This document shows, in pieces, positions 1 through 32,038 of a stretch of DNA of 32,038 nt (positions are counted from its first letter, which is position 1; each line of letters starts with the position of its first letter). This stretch comes from a virus (Duplodnaviria > Heunggongvirae > Uroviricota > Caudoviricetes): IMG/VR virus record IMGVR_UViG_2778261509_000010, positions 1-32,038 of that record, one strand, 5' to 3'. The position numbers and the translations under genes are program-made. The notes below the pieces were generated by a model. It was not told where the DNA came from, ran no database searches, and was given only the letters and a program-made list of their open reading frames with translations.

Positions 1-318
1 ATGAAAAAGATAGCTGCTATATCATTAATTAGTATTTTTATTGTGTCTGGTTGTGCTGTGCATAATGATGAGACAAGTATCGGTAAATTTGGTCTTGCAT
101 ATAAAAGTAATATTCAGCGTAAACTCGATAACCAATACTACACCGAAGCCGAAGCTTCTTTAGCCAGGGGCAGAATATCTGGTGCAGAAAATATAGTAAA
201 AAATGATGCAGCCCATTTCTGTGTTACTCAGGGCAAAAAAATGCAGATAGTTGACCTGAAGACAGAAGGTGCAGGATTACATGGCGTCGCTCGTCTGACA
301 TTCAAATGTGGAGAGTGA
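1..318 (+). CDS. Small secreted lipoprotein (flanking gene, 105 aa)
   Basis: N-terminal signal peptide with lipobox-like IVSGC; AT-rich codon usage unlike the prophage backbone; lies outside the att repeat. Possibly the host yegR-like gene, unverified. Confidence 0.5.
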   Translation: MKKIAAISLISIFIVSGCAVHNDETSIGKFGLAYKSNIQRKLDNQYYTEAEASLARGRISGAENIVKNDAAHFCVTQGKKMQIVDLKTEGAGLHGVARLTFKCGE

Positions 319-476
319 GAATATTTTTTGGTAAGCGTCAAACATGCGCGTTCTGGTTGTGCTTAGCCGGAACCTGTGCGAGCACGATGCCGTTACGTGA
401 AAGGCATCGTGCTATGAAGGGAGATTCTATCGATGTGGTCAATGGAAGACGGTGACCAGGGATAGGGCTTATGCAT

Positions 477-503
477 AAAAAATAAGCCCGTGTAAGGGAG
501 ATT
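477..503. repeat. attL: att core, left copy (27 bp, AAAAAATAAGCCCGTGTAAGGGAGATT)
   Basis: Exact 27-bp direct repeat of 30506-30532; sits just outside the integrase gene. Matches the P2 att core as I recall it. Confidence 0.8.
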
Positions 504-582: not shown

Positions 583-1596
583 TTACTCTACTGTGGACAC
601 TGTGTGGACACTCTCGGCCTCAGTACCACCTCTTAGCGGATTAAGAGAAATGGCGTCCTGAAGGTACTCTGGCGCAAAATGAGCGTAAACCATAGTTTGT
701 TCAATCCGCGTGTGACCTAGTATCCGTTGTAGCGTGATAATACTTCCTCCATTAATCATGAAATGAGTGGCAAAGCTGTGCCTTAGTGCATGTGTGGCTT
801 GCCCCATTGGCAAATCCGGTTTTATTGCTTTCATTGTTCGTCTGAAGCGAGGGTAATCAGCATCAGGGAATAAAAAACCTCGTTTGTTATCCGCGATCAT
901 TTTGGCAACAGCCTCTGAGATCGGGACGGTGCGTGGTTTGTTTGTTTTCGTTTTAACAAACGTGACGCGGTTATGGATGATATTTTCTGCTTTCAAACGA
1001 GCTGCTTCTCCCCAACGTGCTCCAGTACTCAGGCAAAGAATCGCAATCTTTTTATTGTCGCCGTCAAGAGCAGCAAGCAGTAAGGCAATTTCTTCCTGCG
1101 TGAGATAGCCTGTGTCTGGTTTTTCCTCCTTAAGCCTTTTTGTCCCTCTGATAGGGTGCTCACCAAAGAATAACTCCGCTTCAATCAGGGCTGTAAACAT
1201 GCCGCTAATACATGTTAAATCACGATTGATACTCGAAGGTTTAATACCCTGACTTCTTCGGGTGGCGCAGTACTGGCTGATAAGCGATTTCGTAATTTGA
1301 AATGCGCATGGGTCATTCGTTATTTTTGTGAAGATTTCAATTTTTCCAAGATTAGATTTCCCATGCTCTTCGTGTTTACCCTTTAAATCCCACCAGATCT
1401 GTGTCAGCTCCGACAGACGTCGCTTGTCTGTTGGTTTTGATAGCCATTCTTTATTGTGGTGGTTGTACAACGTGTATTTCTCGAAAGCGACAGCTTCGCT
1501 TTTCTTATCAAACTTCCTACGGATGCGTTTTCCATTACGTCCAGTAGGGCGGATGTCCACTTCATATCGACCATCATCGAGTTTTTTGATTGCCAT
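583..1596 (-). CDS. int: Tyrosine integrase (337 aa)
   Basis: ATG at 1596 with GGAGGG Shine-Dalgarno upstream; C-terminal HALRHSFATHF...LGH...TMVYAH catalytic motifs of tyrosine recombinases; adjacent to att core. Confidence 0.95.
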   Translation of the reverse strand: MAIKKLDDGRYEVDIRPTGRNGKRIRRKFDKKSEAVAFEKYTLYNHHNKEWLSKPTDKRRLSELTQIWWDLKGKHEEHGKSNLGKIEIFTKITNDPCAFQITKSLISQYCATRRSQGIKPSSINRDLTCISGMFTALIEAELFFGEHPIRGTKRLKEEKPDTGYLTQEEIALLLAALDGDNKKIAILCLSTGARWGEAARLKAENIIHNRVTFVKTKTNKPRTVPISEAVAKMIADNKRGFLFPDADYPRFRRTMKAIKPDLPMGQATHALRHSFATHFMINGGSIITLQRILGHTRIEQTMVYAHFAPEYLQDAISLNPLRGGTEAESVHTVSTVE

Positions 1597-4165: not shown

Positions 4166-6455
4166 AGCCTCCGGGCGTTTTGTCCCTCCGTCAGCATTTG
4201 TTGCAGGCACCGGTAAGGCGTTTACCGGTGCTTATGCATGGAACGCGCCACGCGAGGCTGTCGGGCGCGAAAGACCCCTTACACGTGACGAGATGCGTCA
4301 GGTGCAAGGTGTTTTATCCACGATTAACCGCCTGCCTTACTTTTTGCGCTCGCTGTTTACTTCACGCTATGACTACATCCGGCGCAATAAAAGCCCGGTG
4401 CACGGGTTTTATTTCCTCACATCCACTTTTCAGCGTCGTTTATGGCCGCGCATTGAGCGTGTGAATCAGCGCCATGAAATGAACACCGACGCGTCGTTGC
4501 TGTTTCTGGCAGAGCGTGACCACTATGCGCGCCTGCCGGGAATGAATGACAAGGAGCTGAAAAAGTTTGCCGCCCGTATTTCATCGCAGCTTTTCATGAT
4601 GTATGAGGAACTCAGCGATGCCTGGGTGGATGCGCATGGCGAAAAAGAATCGCTGTTTACGGATGAGGCGCAGGCTCACCTCTATGGTCATGTTGCTGGC
4701 GCTGCACGTGCTTTCAATATTTCCCCTCTCTACTGGAAAAAATACCGTAAAGGACAGATGACCACGAGGCAGGCATATTCTGCCATTGCCCGTCTGTTTA
4801 ACGATGAGTGGTGGACTCATCAGCTTAAAGGCCAGCGTATGCGCTGGCATGAGGCGTTACTGATTGCTGTCGGGGAGGTGAATAAAGACCGTTCTCCTTA
4901 TGCCAGTAAACATGCCATTCGTGATGTGCGTGCACGCCGCCAGGCAAATCTGGAATTTCTTAAATCGTGTGACCTTGAAAACAGGGAAACCGGCGAGCGC
5001 ATCGACCTTATCAGTAAGGTGATGGGCAGTATTTCTAATCCTGAAATTCGCCGGATGGAGCTGATGAACACCATTGCCGGTATTGAGCGTTACGCCGCCG
5101 CAGAGGGTGATGTGGGGATGTTTATCACGCTGACCACGCCGTCAAAGTATCACCCGACACGTCAGGTCGGAAAAGGCGAAAGTAAAACCGTCCAGCTTAA
5201 TCACGGCTGGAATGATGAGGCATTTAATCCAAAGGATGCGCAGCGTTATCTCTGCCGTATCTGGAGCCTGATGCGCACGGCATTCAAGGATAATGATTTA
5301 CAGGTCTACGGTTTGCGTGTCGTCGAGCCACACCACGACGGAACGCCGCACTGGCATATGATGCTTTTTTGTAATCCACGCCAGCGTAACCAGATTATCG
5401 AAATCATGCGTCGCTATGCGCTCAAAGAGGATGGCGACGAAAGAGGAGCCGCGCGAAACCGTTTTCAGGCGAAACACCTTAACCGGGGCGGTGCTGCGGG
5501 GTATATCGCGAAATACATCTCAAAAAATATCGACGGATATGCACTGGATGGTCAGCTCGATAATGATACCGGCAGACCGCTGAAAGACACTGCCGCGGCT
5601 GTTACCGCATGGGCGTCAACGTGGCGCATCCCGCAATTTAAAACGGTTGGTCTGCCGACAATGGGGGCTTACCGTGAACTACGCAAATTGCCTCGCGGCG
5701 TCAGCATTGCTGATGAGTTTGACGAGCGCGTCGAGGCTGCACGCGCCGCCGCAGACAGTGGTGATTTTGCGTTGTATATCAGCGCGCAGGGTGGGGCAAA
5801 TGTCCCGCGCGATTGTCAGACTGTCAGGGTCGCCCGTAGCCCGTCGGATGACGTTAACGAGTATGAGGAAGAAGTCGAGAGAGTGGTCGGCATTTACGCG
5901 CCGCATCTCGGCGCGCGTCATATTCATATCACCAGAACGACGGACTGGCGCATTGTGCCGAAAGTTCCGGTCGTTGAGCCTTTGACTTTAAAAAGCGGCA
6001 TCGCCGCGCCTCGGAGTCCTGTCAATAACTGTGGAAAGCTCACCGATGGTGATACTTCGTTACCGGCTCCCACACCTTCTGAACACGCCGCAGCAGTGCT
6101 TAATCTGGTTGATGACGGTGTTATCGAATGGAGTGACCCGGAGGTTGTGAGGGCGCTCAGAGGTGCATTAAAATGCGGACTGAGAACACCAAATCGTCAG
6201 CAAAGAAACGGAAGTCCGTTAAAACCGCATGAAATAGCGCCATCAGCCAGGCTGACCAGGTCGGAACGATTGCAAATTACCCGTATTCGCGTTGATCTTG
6301 CTCAGAACGGTATCAGACCTCAGCGATGGGAGCTTGAGTCGCTGGCGCGTGGGGCAACCGTAAATTATGACGGGAAAAAATTCACGTATCCGGTCGCTGA
6401 TGAGTGGCCGGGATATTCAACTATAACAGAGTGGAATCAATTTGATGACGGGTAA
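4155..6455 (+). CDS. A: Rolling-circle replication initiator A (HUH endonuclease)
   Basis: HUH-like motif PHWHMMLF and paired tyrosines in AGYIAKYISKNIDGY; ATG at 4155 preferred (the ORF-track start at 4113 is a TTG). Confidence 0.9.
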   Translation: MAVKASGRFVPPSAFVAGTGKAFTGAYAWNAPREAVGRERPLTRDEMRQVQGVLSTINRLPYFLRSLFTSRYDYIRRNKSPVHGFYFLTSTFQRRLWPRIERVNQRHEMNTDASLLFLAERDHYARLPGMNDKELKKFAARISSQLFMMYEELSDAWVDAHGEKESLFTDEAQAHLYGHVAGAARAFNISPLYWKKYRKGQMTTRQAYSAIARLFNDEWWTHQLKGQRMRWHEALLIAVGEVNKDRSPYASKHAIRDVRARRQANLEFLKSCDLENRETGERIDLISKVMGSISNPEIRRMELMNTIAGIERYAAAEGDVGMFITLTTPSKYHPTRQVGKGESKTVQLNHGWNDEAFNPKDAQRYLCRIWSLMRTAFKDNDLQVYGLRVVEPHHDGTPHWHMMLFCNPRQRNQIIEIMRRYALKEDGDERGAARNRFQAKHLNRGGAAGYIAKYISKNIDGYALDGQLDNDTGRPLKDTAAAVTAWASTWRIPQFKTVGLPTMGAYRELRKLPRGVSIADEFDERVEAARAAADSGDFALYISAQGGANVPRDCQTVRVARSPSDDVNEYEEEVERVVGIYAPHLGARHIHITRTTDWRIVPKVPVVEPLTLKSGIAAPRSPVNNCGKLTDGDTSLPAPTPSEHAAAVLNLVDDGVIEWSDPEVVRALRGALKCGLRTPNRQQRNGSPLKPHEIAPSARLTRSERLQITRIRVDLAQNGIRPQRWELESLARGATVNYDGKKFTYPVADEWPGYSTITEWNQFDDG

Positions 6456-6597
6456 TCGAATGGAATGATCCGGCGGTCGTGAGGGCGCTCAGAGGTGCAT
6501 TAAAACACGGTCTGAGAATACCAAATCGTCAGCAAAGAAACGGAAGTCCGTTAAAACCGCTTGCATTTGTGCCATCGCGAGGCTGATCAAATCAGGT
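6455..6597. repeat. Decayed direct duplicate of the A gene 3' region (copy of about 6123-6260)
   Basis: Long near-identical runs (GTGAGGGCGCTCAGAGGTGCATTAAAA; CCAAATCGTCAGCAAAGAAACGGAAGTCCGTTAAAACCGC) repeated immediately after the A stop codon. Confidence 0.75.
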
Positions 6598-6713: not shown

Positions 6714-6872
6714 GCCGATTTCCTGTGATTGGTTTTCGTTATGCACTCTTTTCTGAAGAGATTAACTACTGATAGACTCAGGTTGGATGTCAGAATCGCT
6801 ATAGATTTCTTGCTATATATGTATTTTTCAATGAAAATGATCTCTGATTTAAACTGTAGTAAGGTGATTGGT

Positions 6873-7361
6873 ATGGATGGTTTATGGGAAAAAATATCGT
6901 CATATAATATATTTAATAATCTTTTTCCAGGTGCTCTTTTTATTTATCTTCTTGAGAGAATGACGAAGATCGTTTTATCTGGCGATGATTTAATAAAAAA
7001 TGTTGTCCTCTATTATTTTGTTGGCTTAGTCATTGGCCGGATTGGTTCTATCGTATTGGAACCTTTTTTAAAACTATCGCGTTTGATTAAGTTTGCTCCT
7101 TATAAAGATTATGTGTCAGCATGTGGTGTGGATGGAAAAATTGAAACTTTGCAAGAGATTGCGAATATGTATAGGACGATATTTTCAATGTCAATTATTC
7201 TTTTGGCGACATTGTGCGTTGTAGGACGGTTTACTGGCGAGACATATGGCTTATCTAAAATAACGTTGGCGGTTTTTGCTATTTTGTTTGTTGTCTCATA
7301 TATTAAACAAATAAGATACATAATATATAGAGTAAATGCTGTTAATAATAAGCTGCCGTAA
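6873..7361 (+). CDS. Multi-pass inner-membrane protein, cargo gene (about 4 TM segments)
   Basis: ATG at 6873 with AAGGTG Shine-Dalgarno 6 nt upstream; ORF is open from a TTG at 6729 (ATG at 6741 also possible). Hydrophobic segments FPGALFIYLL, VVLYYFVGLVIGRIGSIVL, IFSMSIILLATLCVVG, ITLAVFAILFVVSYI; strongly AT-rich. Confidence 0.6.
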   Translation: MDGLWEKISSYNIFNNLFPGALFIYLLERMTKIVLSGDDLIKNVVLYYFVGLVIGRIGSIVLEPFLKLSRLIKFAPYKDYVSACGVDGKIETLQEIANMYRTIFSMSIILLATLCVVGRFTGETYGLSKITLAVFAILFVVSYIKQIRYIIYRVNAVNNKLP

Positions 7362-7374: not shown

Positions 7375-8466
7375 TTATTCTTCGGTTCTATAGTTACTAA
7401 TGTATGATCGTGGAGTGGCTGTTTTCCATCCTGCCCTTTCAGGAGCATTATAAAAATGGTACTTACCAAGCCCCTCGGTGGCGATAACTTTCGCTCCTCG
7501 TCGAGTAAAGGCATTAATTACAGCTTGATGGGGATGTTTATCTGAACCTGGGGCACATGATACAAATGCGGTTATCTCCCTTTTTTCGCCTTCATTTACA
7601 ATGTTACCAACAAGTTTATCGAGAACATCAGGGCCTACATTTCTCCGGCTACCATGATGAGGTACTTGAATGAATCTTAATGATTCTTTATTAATGTATT
7701 GGGAGGCTTGATCTAAGGCTGTTATACCAGCATCGCCAGTGAACACTAACGTTCTTCCATCAATCTCAAGTTTCAAAATGACACTTGAGTTATTTTGTGC
7801 CGAGGTGGTATCGTCATTATCAATACCTTCATCAGTAAACCATTCAGCAACGTAATCAATAAATTTCTTCGTTTTTTCAACTACAGACTCAAAGACTGCT
7901 TTTAGTACTTCAAATCCAGCTGTATCCTCAGCTTTTTTGGGCATTCTTGCGAAATCAGGTATTAGAGTCTCATAGTAAGATTGGGTTGGCCCGATAACAA
8001 CCAGAGTAGCATTATCCCAGGTCATTCCTTGAAAAGGCTCTTTTATTTCAATTCCTTTTTTTTCCGCTAATTTGACAGCGTCATAAGCTTTTTGTAAGTT
8101 TTCTTTCATTCGATTTGCAATACTGGCATCAGTTATCCTGCCATCTGCAAACTCACTTGCGAGACCTTGATTATGTTCCCAAGGCTTATGAATCCAAAAC
8201 TCTTTTACTTCTGCATTTTCTAGAACAGATGTAAGTCCACCGACGTGGTCACCATCGGGGTGTGTGGAGATAAGCAAGTCAATAGTTTTTGTGCGGTAGT
8301 ATTTTTCAATATGCTCAATGACTTGTTCTCCGGTGCTGGCATATCCTGCATCAATAACGACAACTTTTTGTTCATCTCTTGAACCATGTAGGTTTCCCCA
8401 TCTGATGCAGATCGCATCGCCGCTTTTTTTTTCGCCAACAGCTAGAAAATCAATTTCGTAACCCAT
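7375..8466 (-). CDS. ComEC-like metallo-beta-lactamase-fold hydrolase (putative nuclease), cargo gene (363 aa)
   Basis: MBL motifs STHPDGDHVGG (residues ~67-77), VPHHGS and KHPH, resembling the ComEC C-terminal / Lactamase_B_2 pattern; ATG at 8466 with AAGGA Shine-Dalgarno; AT-rich. Confidence 0.8.
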   Translation of the reverse strand: MGYEIDFLAVGEKKSGDAICIRWGNLHGSRDEQKVVVIDAGYASTGEQVIEHIEKYYRTKTIDLLISTHPDGDHVGGLTSVLENAEVKEFWIHKPWEHNQGLASEFADGRITDASIANRMKENLQKAYDAVKLAEKKGIEIKEPFQGMTWDNATLVVIGPTQSYYETLIPDFARMPKKAEDTAGFEVLKAVFESVVEKTKKFIDYVAEWFTDEGIDNDDTTSAQNNSSVILKLEIDGRTLVFTGDAGITALDQASQYINKESLRFIQVPHHGSRRNVGPDVLDKLVGNIVNEGEKREITAFVSCAPGSDKHPHQAVINAFTRRGAKVIATEGLGKYHFYNAPERAGWKTATPRSYISNYRTEE

Positions 8467-8628: not shown

Positions 8629-9168
8629 CTATGACACTGACGCAACCAGATTAACGCCGTGAGTCAGCAGATTTGTAATCACACCGGCAATGACCCCAGG
8701 AGTCCCATCTTTCACCGCACTGATCACTTTATCCCCCATCGTTTCATTTCCACCAAGCACCTCGGGTTTTTTGTTAAGAACTGTGAGCGCTTTTTCAGTA
8801 AGTCGAACATCGTAAAAATACGACTGATGGTCTGTGTTGTACTGAATGTACCCGTTTTCACAGAGAAAATTGAATGTACCTTCAACCACACTACGCAACT
8901 GATTTAACACTTTCATTTCTGGTGAGTTAAGTTGGTCAAAGTAGTCATCAGGTAGCGCGGCGTTAAATTTGTCGTAGTTAATCACCTGTGGTACGGGAAA
9001 ATTTTCCCATAGTACTGCAAAGATTTCCGCCGTTTGTTGGTTAAATAAATCGAGATTTTTCGACATGCAAAATTCCATTTCTTTTGATAATGAGTGGGTT
9101 AAACGCTGGACGAGGCAGATTACCACTCTGGCACAAAACAATGATCTTAGTTCACGCGAAGTTGACAT
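8629..9168 (-). CDS. Hypothetical cargo protein with Gly-rich hydrophobic C-terminus (start uncertain, 145-179 aa)
   Basis: ORF open from ATG at 9168; alternative ATG at 9066 (MSKNLDLF...). C-terminal GTPGVIAGVITNLLTHGVNLVASVS looks like a membrane-interacting tail. No family recognised. Confidence 0.55.
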   Translation of the reverse strand: MSTSRELRSLFCARVVICLVQRLTHSLSKEMEFCMSKNLDLFNQQTAEIFAVLWENFPVPQVINYDKFNAALPDDYFDQLNSPEMKVLNQLRSVVEGTFNFLCENGYIQYNTDHQSYFYDVRLTEKALTVLNKKPEVLGGNETMGDKVISAVKDGTPGVIAGVITNLLTHGVNLVASVS

Positions 9169-21514: not shown

Positions 21515-23241
21515 CAGTGAAATACTACGCCATTCTGACTAATCAGGGCGCGGCACGGCTGGCTAACGCGACGATGCTCGGCAGTAAGCTGAATCTGACG
21601 CAAATGGCCGTTGGTGATGCGAATGGTGTCTTGCCGACACCAGACCCGGCACAGACAAAACTGATTAACCAGAAACGCATCGCGCCGCTGAATCTTCTGA
21701 GTGTTGACCCGAACAACCAGAGCCAGATTATTGCGGAGCAAATCATCCCGGAGAACGAGGGCGGATTCTGGATCCGTGAGATAGGTCTTTATGATGATGA
21801 AGGCGTACTCATTGCGGTGGCGAACTGCCCGGAAACGTACAAACCACAGTTACAGGAAGGCAGTGGTCGTACCCAGACCATCCGTATGATTCTGGTCGTC
21901 TCGAATACCGAAGCCATCACGCTGAAAATCGACCCGTCAGTGGTACTTGCGACCCGCCAGTATGTAGATCAGCAAATAGAAGTTCATGAGCAATCGCGCC
22001 GTCATCCATCTGCTTCTTTGACAGAAAAGGGATTTGTACGTCTGTATAGCGGTGTGGAAAGCAATGATGAAACAGTCGCTGCAACGCCAAAAGCAGTGAA
22101 AATAGCGATGGATAATGCCAGCGCCAGACTGGCAAAAGACCGCAATGGTTCTGATATTCCCAATCCGGCACTGTTTGTTCAGAATCTGGGATTGAAAACG
22201 ACTGTTGATAAAGCAGCATCAGCGATTCAGCCAGGAGATTATGGAATTGGTCTGGCTTATCTGAAAACCATGGGAACCAAATCGCAATTTTTTGCTTACA
22301 GTACAGCTGTCGGCTATCCAGAAGTGCCAACACATGGTGCTGGTTTCCAGGCCTGTTACAACGACAATCGGCGTGCACAAATTTATGTCGCTAATGATGG
22401 CAAGATGTACTGTCGATTCAGCATGTTATCGAAAATTGCCGATGATGAAACACCGTGGAATCAGGTGTTCACCAGTGCACATTATCCAGAAGCATCAGTG
22501 AGTGTTAAAGGAATGGTGCAACTGGGGAGCGATGTAAACAGCGTGTCAGAAAATGTTGCGGCGACATTGAAAGCGGTAAAAATTGCGATGGACAACGCCA
22601 GCGCGAGACTGGCAAAGGACCGCAATGGTGCTGATATTCCTGACCCGACTTTGTTTATTCAGAATCTGGGACTTAAACCGACAGTTGATAAGGCTGAAAG
22701 TGCTCTGCAACAGGGAGCATACGGAATCGGTAGCAAAAATAACTACGAAATGGGTGAGGTTTCACAGTTTCTTGCATATTCAGGTAATGCAGATGAAGTG
22801 CCATCGAATGGTGCAGGTTTTCAGGCTGCGTATAACAAGAACAGACGCGCGCAGATTTTCATCACCGGAGCAGGGGAAATGTATCACCGTTTCAGCGGCT
22901 CTGATACGGTTAAAGACAGTACAACACTATGGCGTCGGGGTGTTTGTGAAGATGAATTTTCATTTGGCAGCAATTATCACCGAATAACTGGCGGTGTGCT
23001 GAAGCAGTTTTTTAACAGTTATTTTTCCGGGGAAACTGGTGTGGTGAATAAAAATTATCAGGTGAATTTTCCGACACCATTTGCCCGTCAGTGCTGGTAC
23101 GTGATCCCTGTTTTCCGTTCGGCACACGGTGGGAGTGTTGAGGGGGTTGCCATTACAACTATTACTGCAACTGGTTTTACTCTGAGCATCACCGGAGATA
23201 ACGGTGGATGGAATATTGGGTTTATTGCGGAGGGGGTCTGA
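21511..23241 (+). CDS. H: Tail fibre protein (576 aa) with internal tandem duplication
   Basis: Position after I. Two ~100-aa segments are near-identical (ATPKAVKIAMDNASARLAKDRNG... and AATLKAVKIAMDNASARLAKDRNG...). Confidence 0.85.
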   Translation: MTVKYYAILTNQGAARLANATMLGSKLNLTQMAVGDANGVLPTPDPAQTKLINQKRIAPLNLLSVDPNNQSQIIAEQIIPENEGGFWIREIGLYDDEGVLIAVANCPETYKPQLQEGSGRTQTIRMILVVSNTEAITLKIDPSVVLATRQYVDQQIEVHEQSRRHPSASLTEKGFVRLYSGVESNDETVAATPKAVKIAMDNASARLAKDRNGSDIPNPALFVQNLGLKTTVDKAASAIQPGDYGIGLAYLKTMGTKSQFFAYSTAVGYPEVPTHGAGFQACYNDNRRAQIYVANDGKMYCRFSMLSKIADDETPWNQVFTSAHYPEASVSVKGMVQLGSDVNSVSENVAATLKAVKIAMDNASARLAKDRNGADIPDPTLFIQNLGLKPTVDKAESALQQGAYGIGSKNNYEMGEVSQFLAYSGNADEVPSNGAGFQAAYNKNRRAQIFITGAGEMYHRFSGSDTVKDSTTLWRRGVCEDEFSFGSNYHRITGGVLKQFFNSYFSGETGVVNKNYQVNFPTPFARQCWYVIPVFRSAHGGSVEGVAITTITATGFTLSITGDNGGWNIGFIAEGV

Positions 23242-23801: not shown

Positions 23802-24992
23802 ATGAGTGACTATCATCACGGCGTGCAGGTGCTGGAGATTAACGACGGCACCCGCGTCATTTCCACTGTATCCACTGCCATTGTCGGCATGGTCTGCACG
23901 GCCAGCGATGCGGATGCGGAAACCTTCCCCCTCAATAAACCGGTGCTGATTACCAATGTGCAGAGCGCAATTGCAAAGGCCGGTAAAAAAGGCACGCTGG
24001 CGGCATCGTTGCAGGCCATCGCCGACCAGTCAAAACCGGTCACCGTTGTCGTGCGTGTGGAAGACGGCACCGGCGACGACGAGGAAACGAAACTCGCGCA
24101 GACCGTTTCCAATATCATCGGCACCACTGACGAAAACGGTCAGTACACCGGACTGAAAGCCCTGCTGGCGGCGGAGTCGGTAACCGGTGTTAAACCGCGT
24201 ATTCTTGGTGTGCCGGGGCTGGATACCAAAGAGGTGGCTGTTGCACTGGCATCAGTCTGTCAGAAGCTGCGCGCTTTCGGATATATCAGCGCATGGGGCT
24301 GTAAAACCATTTCCGAGGTGAAAGCCTACCGCCAGAATTTCAGCCAGCGTGAGCTGATGGTCATCTGGCCGGATTTCCTCGCATGGGATACGGTCACCAG
24401 TACCACCGCCACCGCGTATGCCACCGCCCGTGCGCTGGGTCTGCGTGCCAAAATCGACCAGGAGCAGGGCTGGCATAAAACGCTGTCCAACGTCGGGGTA
24501 AACGGTGTTACCGGCATCAGCGCATCTGTATTCTGGGATTTGCAGGAGTCCGGCACCGATGCTGACCTGCTTAACGAGTCAGGCGTCACTACGCTGATTC
24601 GCCGCGACGGTTTCCGATTCTGGGGTAACCGTACCTGCTCTGATGACCCGCTGTTCCTCTTTGAAAACTACACCCGCACCGCGCAGGTGCTGGCCGACAC
24701 GATGGCTGAGGCGCACATGTGGGCGGTGGACAAGCCCATCACTGCAACGCTGATTCGCGACATTGTTGACGGCATCAATGCCAAATTCCGTGAGCTGAAA
24801 ACAAACGGCTATATCGTGGATGCGACCTGCTGGTTCAGCGAAGAATCCAACGATGCGGAAACCCTCAAGGCCGGAAAATTGTATATCGACTACGACTATA
24901 CACCGGTGCCTCCTCTCGAAAACCTGACCCTGCGCCAGCGTATTACCGATAAATACCTGGCAAATCTGGTCACCTCGGTTAACAGCAATTAA
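23802..24992 (+). CDS. FI: Tail sheath protein (396 aa)
   Basis: ATG at 23802 with GGAG Shine-Dalgarno (MSDYHHGVQVLEIN...); size and position. Confidence 0.9.
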   Translation: MSDYHHGVQVLEINDGTRVISTVSTAIVGMVCTASDADAETFPLNKPVLITNVQSAIAKAGKKGTLAASLQAIADQSKPVTVVVRVEDGTGDDEETKLAQTVSNIIGTTDENGQYTGLKALLAAESVTGVKPRILGVPGLDTKEVAVALASVCQKLRAFGYISAWGCKTISEVKAYRQNFSQRELMVIWPDFLAWDTVTSTTATAYATARALGLRAKIDQEQGWHKTLSNVGVNGVTGISASVFWDLQESGTDADLLNESGVTTLIRRDGFRFWGNRTCSDDPLFLFENYTRTAQVLADTMAEAHMWAVDKPITATLIRDIVDGINAKFRELKTNGYIVDATCWFSEESNDAETLKAGKLYIDYDYTPVPPLENLTLRQRITDKYLANLVTSVNSN

Positions 24993-28461: not shown

Positions 28462-28941
28462 ATGATGCTCGCGTTAGGTATGTTTGTTTTTATGCGCCAG
28501 ACGCTGCCACACCAGACCATGCAGCGTGAATCAGATTATCGCTGGCCGTCAAATTCCCGTATCGGTAAACGGGATGCCTTTCAGTTTCTCGGTGTTGGCG
28601 ATGAAAACATCACGCTTGCCGGTGTGCTTTATCCTGAACTGACCGGCGGAAAGCTGACGATGACCACGCTCAGGCTGATGGCAGAGGAAGGCCGGGCGTG
28701 GCCGTTGCTGGATGGCACCGGCATGATTTACGGCATGTATGTCATCAGCAAGGTGAGTGAAACAGGGAGTATTTTCTTTGCAGACGGCACACCCCGGAAA
28801 ATTGATTTTACGCTGTCGCTCACCCGCGTTGATGAATCACTGGCCGCGCTTTATGGCGATATCGGTAAACAGGCGGAATCGCTTATCGGTAAGGCTGGCA
28901 GTATGGCGACTAAATTCACGGGTATGACGGGGGCGGGATAA
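28462..28941 (+). CDS. U: Tail protein U (tail terminator, 159 aa)
   Basis: AAGGAGG Shine-Dalgarno; position and size. Confidence 0.85.
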   Translation: MMLALGMFVFMRQTLPHQTMQRESDYRWPSNSRIGKRDAFQFLGVGDENITLAGVLYPELTGGKLTMTTLRLMAEEGRAWPLLDGTGMIYGMYVISKVSETGSIFFADGTPRKIDFTLSLTRVDESLAALYGDIGKQAESLIGKAGSMATKFTGMTGAG

Positions 28942-30104
28942 TGCTGGATGCACTGACATTTGATGCAGGCAGTACGCTGACGCCGGATTACATGCTGATG
29001 CTCGACAGCAGGGATATTACCGGCAATATCAGCGACCGTCTGATGAGCATGACCCTGACGGATAACCGGGGCTTTGAGGCTGACCAGCTTGATATTGAAC
29101 TGAACGATGCCGACGGGCAGGTCGGGCTGCCGGTTCGTGGCGCTGTCCTGACGGTGTATATCGGCTGGAAAGGTTTTGCCCTGGTATGTAAAGGGAAATT
29201 TACCGTTGATGAGGTTGAACACCGGGGCGCGCCGGATGTGGTCACCATCCGCGCCCGGAGTGCAGATTTTCGCGGGACGCTCAATTCCCGCCGTGAAGGC
29301 TCCTGGCATGATACCACGCTCGGTGCGATTGTTGAGGCGATAGCCTCCCGTAACAGGCTGGAAGCCAGTGTCGCTCCGTCACTGGCAGGAATTAAAATCC
29401 CGCACATCGACCAGTCGCAGGAGTCTGATGCGAAATTCCTGACCCGTCTTGCAGAACGCAACGGCGGTGAGGTCTCGGTAAAAATGGGAAAACTGTTGTT
29501 TCTCAAAGCGGGGCAGGGGGTGACGGCCAGTGGTAAAAAAATCCCGCAGATTACCATCACCCGCAGCGACGGCGACCGTCATCATTTTGCGATTGCTGAC
29601 CGTGGAGCTTACACCGGCGTAACGGCAAAGTGGTTACACACCAAAGACCCGAAGCCGCAAAAGCAGAAGGTAAAACTGAAACGCAAAAAGAAAGAGAAAC
29701 ACCTGCGCGCACTGGAGCACCCGAAAGCGAAACCAGTCACGCAGAAGAAAGCCCCTAAAGTACCGGAAGCGCGCGAAGGTGAATACATGGCCGGTGAGGC
29801 TGATAACGTTTTTGCCCTGACCACGGTATATGCCACGAAAGCGCAGGCCATGCGCGCCGCTCAGGCGAAGTGGGATAAACTGCAACGGGGCGTTGCGGAG
29901 TTCTCCATCAGCCTGGCTACCGGTCGGGCAGATATTTACACGGAAGCACCGGTTAAAGTGTCAGGCTTTAAGCGCGTCATAGACGAGCAGGACTGGACAA
30001 TCACTAAGGTGACACATTTTCTGAATAATAGCGGCTTCACGACGTCCTTAGAGCTTGAGGTCAGGCTTTCTGATGTGGAGTATGAAACAGAAGATGATGA
30101 GTGA
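28941..30104 (+). CDS. D: Tail protein D (387 aa)
   Basis: Start overlaps the U stop (TAATG); Lys-rich low-complexity linker KPQKQKVKLKRKKKEK. Confidence 0.85.
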   Translation: MLDALTFDAGSTLTPDYMLMLDSRDITGNISDRLMSMTLTDNRGFEADQLDIELNDADGQVGLPVRGAVLTVYIGWKGFALVCKGKFTVDEVEHRGAPDVVTIRARSADFRGTLNSRREGSWHDTTLGAIVEAIASRNRLEASVAPSLAGIKIPHIDQSQESDAKFLTRLAERNGGEVSVKMGKLLFLKAGQGVTASGKKIPQITITRSDGDRHHFAIADRGAYTGVTAKWLHTKDPKPQKQKVKLKRKKKEKHLRALEHPKAKPVTQKKAPKVPEAREGEYMAGEADNVFALTTVYATKAQAMRAAQAKWDKLQRGVAEFSISLATGRADIYTEAPVKVSGFKRVIDEQDWTITKVTHFLNNSGFTTSLELEVRLSDVEYETEDDE

Positions 30105-30185: not shown

Positions 30186-30404
30186 ATGTTTCATTGTCCT
30201 TTATGCCAGCATGCCGCACATGCGCGTACAAGCCGCTATATCACTGACACGACAAAAGAGCGTTATCACCAGTGCCAGAACGTGAATTGCAGCGCCACGT
30301 TCATCACCTATGAGTCGGTACAGAGATACATCGTGAAGCCGGGAGAAGTCCACGCCGTAAGGCCGCACCCGTTACCGTCAGGGCAGCAAATTATGTGGAT
30401 GTAA
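30186..30404 (+). CDS. ogr: Ogr late-gene transcriptional activator (C4 zinc finger, 72 aa)
   Basis: ATG at 30186 (MFHCPLCQH...CQNVNC); last phage gene before att, as in P2. Confidence 0.85.
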   Translation: MFHCPLCQHAAHARTSRYITDTTKERYHQCQNVNCSATFITYESVQRYIVKPGEVHAVRPHPLPSGQQIMWM

Positions 30405-30414
30405 TTACAAACAG

Positions 30415-30441
30415 AAAGCCCCTCAGTCGAGGGGCTTTTTT
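30415..30441 (+). terminator. Intrinsic terminator after ogr
   Basis: Hairpin AGCCCCTC-AGTC-GAGGGGCT followed by T6. Confidence 0.75.
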
Positions 30442-30505
30442 GTCGATGTGGTCAATGTGTGGACGTGACCAGAAATAAATCCTTTTATTTCATTGAATTA
30501 CGCGT

Positions 30506-30532
30506 AAAAAATAAGCCCGTGTAAGGGAGATT
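30506..30532. repeat. attR: att core, right copy (27 bp)
   Basis: Exact direct repeat of 477-503, downstream of the ogr terminator. Confidence 0.8.
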
Positions 30533-30676
30533 ACACAGGCTAAGGAGGTGGTTCCTGGTACAGCTAGCATTTTATGGGTTATGTTTTTCAGCGAAACGGA
30601 TGATAACCTTAATAAATGCAGCTGTATGTGATCGGTTTCTAAGAATTTTCCATCCGGGAAAAATAATCGAAATTAA

Positions 30677-32038
30677 TCACTTACCGTGGGGGTTACGCGT
30701 GGTTTCCCCGGAGAAATTACGCATCAGCAGCGCGTAATTTAGCTCAAGATCCTGCGGCACCGGGAGCCACACAGTATAACCATCGCCTGGTGCTACCGGC
30801 ATAGCTTCGCCTTTGGCGTTTTCCATGTGCTCAAGGGTAAAGTTAATGTTGCCTTGCGGCGTCATCAGCTCAAGGCTGTCGCCAACGGAGAATTTATTTT
30901 TCACCGCTACCGCCGCGAGGTCCCCCTTGCGCTCACCGGTAAACTCACCAACAAACTGCTGGCGGTCAGAAACCGAATAACCGTATTCGTAGTTCTGATA
31001 ATCGTCGTGAGTATGACGACGCAGGAAACCTTCGGTATAGCCACGATGCGCCAGACCTTCCAGAGTTTCCAGCAGGCTGGTATCGAACGGTTTGCCCGCA
31101 GCGGCATCATCGATAGCTTTACGATAAACCTGTGCGGTGCGTGCGCAATAGTAGAAAGATTTAGTACGGCCTTCGATCTTCAGCGAATGCACGCCCATTT
31201 TGGTCAGGCGTTCTACATGGGCGATGGCGCGCAGATCTTTCGAGTTCATGATGTAAGTGCCGTGCTCATCTTCAAACGCGGTCATATACTCGCCCGGACG
31301 CTGGGCCTCTTCGATCATAAACACTTTGTCGGTTGGTGCGCCGATACCCAGCGTCGGCTCAACATTTTGCACCGGAATCGGCTCGTACTTGTGTACGATG
31401 TTGCCAACATCATCTTCTTTCCCTTCCAGGACGTTGTACTCCCAGCGGCAGGCGTTGGTGCAGGTGCCCTGGTTCGGGTCGCGCTTGTTGATATAGCCAG
31501 AGAGCAGGCAGCGACCGGAGTAGGCCATGCACAGCGCGCCGTGAACGAAGATCTCGATCTCCATATCCGGCACCTGATTGCGGATCTCTTCAATCTCTTC
31601 CAGCGACAGCTCGCGAGAGAGGATCACGCGGGTCAGGCCCATTTGCTGCCAGAATTTCACCGTCGCCCAGTTCACGGCGTTAGCCTGCACCGAAAGGTGG
31701 ATCGGCATTTCAGGGAAGTGCTCACGCACCAGCATAATCAGCCCTGGATCGGACATAATCAGCGCATCCGGCCCCATTTCCACCACCGGTTTCAGGTCAC
31801 GGATAAAGGTTTTCAGCTTGGCGTTGTGCGGTGCAATGTTGACCACGACATAAAACTTTTTCCCCAGCGCGTGGGCTTCATTGATGCCGAGCTGAAGATT
31901 TTCGTGGTTGAATTCGTTGTTGCGCACACGCAGGGAATAACGCGGCTGGCCCGCATAAACAGCATCTGCGCCATAAGCGAAAGCGTAACGCATATTTTTC
32001 AGCGTTCCCGCCGGGGAAAGGAGTTCCGGTTTAAACAT
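30677..32038 (-). CDS. yegQ: U32-family peptidase (yegQ/trhP-like, 453 aa), flanking host gene
   Basis: Full-length 453-aa ORF on the minus strand with its ATG at the last three bases of the window; sequence pattern of U32 peptidases; lies outside the att repeat. In E. coli K-12 a cryptic P2 remnant (ogrK) sits beside yegQ, consistent with this being a P2 attachment locus (from memory). Confidence 0.7.
   Translation of the reverse strand: MFKPELLSPAGTLKNMRYAFAYGADAVYAGQPRYSLRVRNNEFNHENLQLGINEAHALGKKFYVVVNIAPHNAKLKTFIRDLKPVVEMGPDALIMSDPGLIMLVREHFPEMPIHLSVQANAVNWATVKFWQQMGLTRVILSRELSLEEIEEIRNQVPDMEIEIFVHGALCMAYSGRCLLSGYINKRDPNQGTCTNACRWEYNVLEGKEDDVGNIVHKYEPIPVQNVEPTLGIGAPTDKVFMIEEAQRPGEYMTAFEDEHGTYIMNSKDLRAIAHVERLTKMGVHSLKIEGRTKSFYYCARTAQVYRKAIDDAAAGKPFDTSLLETLEGLAHRGYTEGFLRRHTHDDYQNYEYGYSVSDRQQFVGEFTGERKGDLAAVAVKNKFSVGDSLELMTPQGNINFTLEHMENAKGEAMPVAPGDGYTVWLPVPQDLELNYALLMRNFSGETTRNPHGK

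Follow-up and report, generated by a model that had tools for sequence, protein, structure and literature searches.

Organization of the prophage-cyaR locus

The window, by which we mean the whole stretch of 32,038 nucleotides that was analysed, carries a P2-like prophage flanked by yegR on the left and by cyaR and yegQ on the right. The features needed here are given by position, strand and basis of assignment.

1–318, plus strand: yegR, coding for a lipoprotein of 105 aa (RefSeq annotation in matching genomes)
319–476: non-coding flank of 158 bp, from yegR to the att core
381–413, no strand: inverted repeat AGCACGATGCC...GGCATCGTGCT, 3' of yegR (read off the sequence)
416–476, plus strand: probable decayed P2-type attP P arm (alignments, repeat family, shuffle test and P2 protein_bind annotation)
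477–503, plus strand: attL core AAAAAATAAGCCCGTGTAAGGGAGATT, 27 bp, identical to 30506–30532 and to the attP core of P2
504–617, plus strand: phage P' arm (pattern search, coordinates transferred from the P2 annotation)
about 520–593: part of the P' arm homologous to the Cox-binding stretch of P2 (transfer of the P2 annotation)
592–599 and 603–610: two predicted Int arm-type repeats in the P' arm, both TGTGGACA (pattern search)
583–1596, minus strand: P2-type integrase gene int (Pfam Int_N, 1.3e-24; Phage_integrase, 8.7e-22)
28941–30104: D gene (Pfam match)
30186–30404, plus strand: ogr, the final prophage gene (Pfam Ogr_Delta, 1.1e-21; 99% identity to OgrK of K-12)
30405–30505: ogr-side arm, between ogr and the right core
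30415–30438, plus strand: rho-independent terminator of ogr (ungapped alignment to the annotated P2 terminator)
30443–30470, plus strand: predicted Int P-arm binding site (gapless alignment to the P2 protein_bind feature 'Int, P arm', 24293–24320; pattern search)
30447–30454 and 30458–30465, plus strand: P-arm repeats TGTGGTCA and TGTGGACG within this site
30474–30507, plus strand: predicted IHF site of the P arm (alignment transfer from the P2 protein_bind feature 'IHF', 24324–24357)
30506–30532, plus strand: attR core, the 3' half of the cyaR terminator with its U tract
30509–30594, minus strand: cyaR (RyeE) sRNA gene, the integration target (Rfam RF00112, full length)
30677–32038, minus strand: yegQ/trhP, the right bacterial flank (RefSeq annotation of matching genomes)

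The cyaR gene was recovered with an RF00112 score of 100.7 bits, compared to a gathering score of 47, and cyaR is the site of P2 prophages in E. coli W, K-12 and B (PMC3032704). Among the prophage genes, Pfam matches also identified a C-type repressor and cox. The inverted repeat at 381–413 shows no homology to the phage arm and lacks a T run. A terminator search over 250–650, which takes in the left flank, called no site, and a sister Escherichia species (locus L104) has other sequence at the position of the repeat.

In the interior of the prophage two adjacent ORFs (6729–7361, plus strand, and 7375–8466, minus strand, the latter with a metallo-beta-lactamase fold) match PDC-M48 of PADLOC, a candidate defence system, at 1.7e-50 for A and 7.4e-101 for B. 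This pair is presumably cargo of a P2 variable region; the ORF next to it (8629–9168, minus strand) gave no match. Just 5' of the defence-like cargo lies a direct repeat of 125 nt with 89% identity (6120–6244 and 6452–6576), and a repeat of 248 nt with 71% identity (22004–22251 and 22484–22731) is located in the presumed tail-fibre region.

The left flank is homologous to the ogr-side arm of the prophage

An earlier note on this DNA had pointed out that a motif at 431–459, just outside the left core, closely matches 30444–30472, just inside the right one. The bases are indeed found at these positions: CGATGTGGTCAATG is present at 431–444 and at 30444–30457, and GACGGTGACCAG at 448–459 corresponds to GACGTGACCAG at 30462–30472. 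A repeat search paired 416–464 with 30429–30477 at 71% identity over 49 nt and also returned the att repeat (469–503 and 30498–30532), which contains the identical 27-nt core (477–503 and 30506–30532). MAFFT traces the homology from about position 416 up to the core and opens a gap of 16 nt in the left flank. The homologous segments, 416–476 and 30429–30505 of the ogr-side arm, have an exact 15-mer plus GTGACCAG in common, and they occupy the same position relative to the core, 416–476 abutting the core at 477–503 as 30429–30505 abuts the core at 30506–30532.

The probability that this resemblance is due to chance is, in our estimate, negligible. The match is short, and nothing else speaks in favour of coincidence, but the local alignment of flank 380–476 with arm 30405–30505, from which the cores were excluded, reaches a score of 38, while dinucleotide shuffles give a mean of 13.7 ± 2.2 with a maximum of 29, none of 2000 attaining the observed value. 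Allowing up to two mismatches, the 15-mer TCGATGTGGTCAATG occurs in the window only at 430 and 30443, where 0.05 occurrences are expected, and no shuffle out of 100 contained two matches. In addition, an independent E. coli allele (strain 405, see below) and the sister species fill in more of the same arm. The likeness of the segment outside the left core to the phage arm inside the right one, as seen by the earlier note, is thus well founded.

The copy in the left flank is degraded. Arm-type repeat 1 is intact (TGTGGTCA at 434–441), and GTGACCAG is kept at 452–459. Repeat 2 is degenerate, reading GAAGACGG in register, with two of eight matches to the phage repeat TGTGGACG; shifted by one base it reads GGAAGACG (444–451) with five of eight. 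The IHF-site region of the flank (460–476) is shortened: owing to the 16-nt gap, about half of the bases corresponding to the annotated IHF site of P2 are missing. Repeat 1 lies 43 nt from the core, compared to 59 nt in the phage. The left flank therefore lacks a P-arm IHF site as well as the pair of tgTGGaCa repeats about one helical turn apart, of which the phage arm has both members.

A separate detail of the flank is AAGGGAGATT at 417–426, 4 nt 5' of the 15-mer, which repeats the final 10 nt of the core (494–503) exactly. Of the 17 nt preceding it, only 5 agree with the core. The same bases align with the descending half of the ogr terminator (8/14), where the sister species has GAGGAAGCGCTTT, and AAGGGAGATT may be either a decayed terminator or a truncated extra copy of the core.

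The phage partner corresponds to the Int-binding P arm of P2

The ogr-side arm of the window aligns without gaps to P2 (GenBank NC_001895), where the aligned bases comprise the ogr terminator, the 'Int, P arm' site (24293–24320, TCGATGTGGTCAATGTGTGGACGTGACC), the 'IHF' site (24324–24357) and the attP core. Since the P2 record annotates the aligned phage bases in this way, the motif of the earlier note corresponds to the P-arm binding site of Int. The phage repeats TGTGGTCA and TGTGGACG are spaced 11 nt apart, and both fit the consensus tgTGGaCa of Int arm-type sites (PMC3448106) and the two P'-arm repeats TGTGGACA (592 and 603).

Wphi, fiAA91-ss, R18C and Yersinia phage YPM-4 all have the conserved P arm although their cores are unrelated. 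The first three have one common, unrelated core, and YPM-4 has yet another. These arms have in common the ogr terminator, the GTCGATGTGG..TGTGGAC repeats and a ATAAATCC.TTTAT.TCAT block, and diverge only from the start of the core. As P2-like phages with unrelated cores conserve the P arm, it is intrinsic to the phage, and the transfer went from phage to host. The reverse origin, in which the P arm of cyaR-integrating P2 phages is host DNA captured from 3' of cyaR, e.g. by aberrant excision in the way that att cores copy the 3' ends of target genes, is highly improbable. It is true that the 27-bp core copies the 3' end of cyaR and that the identity extends about 8 nt past the core (TTAYGCRT). 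However, the arm is common to P2-like phages that differ in core and integration site, it bears the annotated Int and IHF sites, which the phage needs, and the ancestral spacer between cyaR and yegS in 60 species (see below) has nothing alike.

We also searched for a phage arm more than 71% identical to the E. coli flank and found only the records of vB_EcoM-720R8 and 'Phage TP'. Both hold host DNA, and the E. coli version of the flank is absent from genuine phages. The record of Escherichia phage vB_EcoM-720R8 (ON470606.1) includes host yegS and yegR, and that of 'Phage TP' (AY639599.1) is a K-12-like clone with the order yegR'-D'-ogr-cyaR-yegQ; the two can yield false 'phage' matches for the bacterial flank.

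The flank belongs to the ordinary attB of E. coli

The unoccupied site was rebuilt by joining 150–503 to 30533–30800 and was sought in 5426 complete E. coli genomes, a genome being counted when a single place covered at least 80% of the query. The reconstructed order yegR, flank, core and cyaR, in one place and with no full-length prophage, is present in 4563 of these genomes, a number that includes K-12-type sites with the 630-bp ogrK-D' remnant and sites with an insert of 170 bp. Strain BE2-5 is 100% identical to the reconstructed empty site. Flank and core together (124 nt) are found in 5374/5426 genomes. Thus, the flank is ordinary E. coli attB, namely locI, the site that P2 uses at the cyaR 3' end.

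This changes the reading of the junction. The earlier note had interpreted the flank as the end of an older resident P2-like element next to which the incoming phage integrated, unless the motif should turn out to be part of the conserved attB arm of prophage-free strains. This is what the 4563 genomes, and BE2-5 with full identity, contain. The older element survives in so far as the flank is best explained by the attR of an earlier P2-like element, whereas its restriction to a strain or lineage is contradicted by the 5374 genomes. The note had also suggested looking for remains of ogr or D; tblastn revealed no such fragments in 319–476 or in the yegS-yegR stretch of related loci.

A recent scar, left by a P2-like prophage that resided in this strain or in a narrow lineage and beside which the present phage integrated, is accordingly scarcely credible. 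The homology to the P arm is genuine, and K-12 shows that recent remnants of this kind form at the cyaR site. Yet the identical flank occurs in a site without prophage (BE2-5, over the whole reconstructed attB) and throughout nearly the entire set of genomes, there are no ogr or D fragments nearby, and K-12 has the motif on top of a remnant of its own. The latter consists of ogrK, the D' pseudogene yegZ and attR beside cyaR, and appears as 'ogr-D'' under the site 'cyaR RNA' in PMC3032704. The order in K-12 is flank with motif, truncated core AAAAAAATAAGCCCGTGTA joined straight to D'-ogrK, intact P arm, full core and cyaR, and tblastn matches to D and Ogr are found only to the right of the motif. 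Because the D'-ogrK remnant sits between the truncated attL core and attR, inside the same attB, it is a separate event and later than the motif.

The flank exists in more than one form within the species. A minority allele, found in strain 405 (locus L004, 585–640), has 12 extra bases, GGGATCAATCCGTCTCTATGG, which restore part of the IHF region, and about 665 of the 5426 genomes match this long arm at 95% identity or more. More of the IHF region is kept both in this allele and in the sister species. In E. coli S3 (NZ_CP010228.1) the left flank matches only to window position 431, and the matched bases fall in a gene annotated for a major capsid protein of the P2 family, suggesting that the junction is rearranged. 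An AT-rich insert of about 170 bp follows the yegR stop codon directly in some E. coli (MNCRE44 and the host of 720R8) as well as in the sister species; it is seen at 475–645 of locus L002 and also in L006 and L104, and one record annotates it as a hypothetical protein of 41 aa.

The yegS-cyaR junction in other species

We surveyed the site in other species with cyaR as seed and one genome per species. The survey lists 120 loci, with E. fergusonii and E. marmotae not among them. In 60 of the 120, all from Enterobacteriaceae, yegS starts at most 130 nt from the core, and the spacer between yegS and core is conserved (...AGTGTA..CAG...GTCAGAACAGGATGAAAG...). None of these 60 loci contains arm-like sequence. 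The uninterrupted target is thus found in Escherichia sp. E1V33, where yegS abuts cyaR with neither yegR nor arm-like sequence, and in 59 further species. The same adjacency of yegS and cyaR was sought in the E. coli genomes and occurs in none.

Arm-like sequence, defined by upstream 100 nt that score above all of 918 random controls, is present at 15 of the listed loci, and all 15 have an insertion or prophage or lack a yegS start within the fetched locus. In the sister species the flank aligns to the arm, IHF site and core of P2 in BLAST with 83.8% identity (E = 9e-11), its repeats being mutated. Good P arms are kept in Citrobacter sp. Awk 4 (L019) and 'Bacterium BS0013' (L027), the former with an ogr-type terminator and with no int, D or ogr within 2.8 kb. 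The island of Enterobacter sp. Bisph1 is made up of a core copy, an int fragment, further ORFs, a P arm and the core. Citrobacter youngae has an ORF of 201 aa between ogr and the P arm, so that cargo can occupy the position that yegR would have had.

Several further arrangements were seen at this site. E. albertii NBRC 107761 (L060, about 2600–2900) keeps the proximal 50 nt of the P arm beside cyaR, has no yegS or yegR within 3 kb, and shows to the left of the arm remnant what by eye resembles a putative orfA fragment of the IS3 family. In five Enterobacter and Scandinavium loci (L013, L029, L096, L078 and L112) islands of 0.9–2.2 kb lie between yegS and cyaR with a second core beside yegS, most of them without P-arm-like sequence, so that the cyaR core seems to serve other types of element as well. 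A fixed insertion of about 630 bp, common to many Enterobacter species, has an ORF that appears to be directed towards the core.

A low-GC island with a second core-like copy beside yegS

In E. coli the ancestral yegS-cyaR spacer is kept beside yegS and is followed at once by a core-like 27-mer. Compared to the core, this left copy has 16/27 ungapped matches in the host of 720R8 (AAAAAGTCAGTTCAGGTATGGGGATTC), 17/27 in K-12 (AAAAAGTCAGTTCAAGTATGGAGGATT, counted manually on the alignment) and 20/27 in the sister species (AAACCGTCAGTCTGCATAAGAGAGATT). On its own the E. coli copy is weak, as about 1 in 1000 locus positions reach 16–17/27. In the 8-kb locus of the sister species, on the other hand, the left copy is the sole site besides the true core with at least 18 matches in 15,948 positions. 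The left copies have the derived bases GTCAGT in common, and their majority consensus AAAAAGTCAGTCTGCGTAAGGGAGATT matches a TGCG-type core at 24/27 positions by manual count. The island thus has core repeats at both ends, a perfect one on the right and a degenerate one on the left. Resemblance to a P' arm was looked for 3' of the E. coli left copy, where the alignment of core plus P' arm is not significant (670/2000 shuffles).

The enclosed DNA has a GC content of 36–38% compared to 50% in yegS and 54% in yegQ, with yegR itself at 38.7%. Among the 120 listed species loci, tblastn finds yegR only in E. coli, Shigella and the sister species, whose YegR is 90% identical. No homologue of yegR was found in genuine phage records, the protein gave only sub-threshold Pfam matches and no family, and with Int, D and Ogr as queries tblastn returned no match in the interval from yegS to the core of empty-site loci. 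Since yegR has no homologue in real phages, it is the arm alone that argues for a P2-like origin of the entire island. Taken as a whole, the yegR segment of about 0.8–1 kb looks like a fossil integrated element.

Proposed origin of the decayed arm

We consider it likely that 416–476 is a decayed P2-type P arm that stems from an ancient integration of a P2-like element at cyaR in an ancestor of E. coli. The outgroups have neither the arm nor yegR, and the second core-like copy is located at the place where such an integration predicts it. The ancient element would have entered the 3' end of cyaR in the orientation of the present prophage and would then have lost nearly everything. What was left over would be, in order, a degenerate left core beside yegS, AT-rich DNA, yegR, the decayed P arm, an intact right core and cyaR. 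The intact right core would be the attB of today (locI), with the ogrK remnant of K-12 and the prophage of the window as later occupants. A phage-like arm would then lie just outside attL because the prophage of the window integrated into the right core of the fossil, and yegR sits within this proposed fossil island. We infer that one P2-like element made both ends of the island and carried yegR. Between E. coli and the sister species, the arms differ to a greater extent than the flanking genes. For this reason the arm may have been rewritten by later P2-like visits, and it need not date from the event that brought yegR.

The same difference bears on a two-event origin, in which the yegR island derives from another element that used the cyaR core, and the arm is a later, independent P2-like scar, left when a prophage was lost by deletion between the old flank and its own P arm. 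The arms are strongly different although YegR is 90% identical, E. coli has a short and a long arm allele, the island contains no P2 genes, and the cyaR core hosts many islands in Enterobacter and relatives that do not look P2-like and are flanked by core copies. We nevertheless regard two events as unlikely. They are less economical than one, and an arm beside the right core together with a left core beside yegS fits a single P2-type element.

The preferred reading, an ancient P2-like integration, treats the arm as a relic, and the decayed arm is probably inert. We base this on the sequence, in which one of the two repeats is intact, 16 nt of the IHF site are missing, and 43 instead of 59 nt separate repeat 1 from the core. 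It is very unlikely that the motif is maintained as a functional element, either as a residual arm-type site of Int that helps to make locI the preferred P2 site or alters attL in excision, or as part of the 3' regulation of yegR. Repeat 1 and its surroundings match over an exact 15-mer with the mismatches clustered in repeat 2, and the stretch is kept in nearly all E. coli. However, conservation within the species is no higher than that of neighbouring non-coding DNA, the flank has lost repeat 2 and the IHF site and has an altered spacing to the core, and in the sister species it is the repeats that are mutated. Attachment sites that consist of the core only suffice as attB substrates for P2 in vitro, which also counts against a function of the arm. 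We give little credence to the further idea that the arm may be active at locI, in site preference or lysogen stability, and that yegR may be domesticated cargo of an ancient P2-like phage. If this were true, the surviving Int repeat would provide the attB at locI with a residual arm site, and attL would be partly attP-like. The yegR gene is reported to be regulated by EvgA.

Comparison with known remnants and implications

The cyaR site, the 27-bp core, the arm sites of P2 and the ogrK/D' remnant of K-12 are already known. The cryptic P2 remnant of K-12 was reportedly described by Barreiro and Haggard-Ljungquist (J Bacteriol 1992). The literature that could be searched, which does not include this 1992 locI paper, holds nothing on the attB flank as a relic of a P arm or on yegR in a fossil element, and nothing relevant was found on yegR and prophages or on locH.

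The motif is a further, older and more decayed prophage remnant at the 3' end of an sRNA gene. It lies at the same site as the K-12 remnant, which is also a P2-like prophage cut down to the ogr-side end, with P arm and live core. Unlike the motif, the K-12 remnant is young, its D' and Ogr being 96% and 99% identical to the proteins of the window prophage. It has an intact arm and, among the genomes examined, is confined to K-12-type strains and close laboratory relatives. The motif, in contrast, is about 71% identical to the phage arm, comes without phage genes and is found in nearly every E. coli; the ogr and D 3' fragment that accompanies attR in K-12 is absent from the left flank of the window (319–476). 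With the attP P arm of P2 the motif has in common its homology, the position on the same side of the same 27-bp core and an identical repeat 1 (TGTGGTCA). It differs by the degenerate repeat 2, an IHF site cut by 16 nt and an ogr terminator that is unrecognisable, and it is part of host DNA, at a site unoccupied in most strains.

'Grounded' prophages are fossil islands flanked by duplicated 3' ends of tRNA, tmRNA and sRNA genes. The yegR island resembles them in its insertion at an sRNA 3' end, the direct repeats of the core, the low GC content and its absence from relatives. In contrast to them it is extremely reduced, to about 0.8–1 kb and a single orphan gene, has been fixed in the species, and still offers present-day P2-like phages an active attB at its right end.

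The arm outside attL is part of the host DNA, is shared across the species and is silent on the lysogeny history of this strain, which corrects the reading of the junction. Our analysis suggests that what survives of a much older element at its right end now serves as the preferred P2 site of E. coli, and that yegR came along with this element. The locus illustrates, on a small scale but clearly, how remnants stack up when one sRNA 3' end is used repeatedly, with three layers seen here, i.e. the putative ancient island, the ogrK remnant of K-12 and the prophages of the present day. In practical terms, attL at the cyaR site could be put in the wrong place by predictors of prophage boundaries that rely on similarity to extend att repeats.
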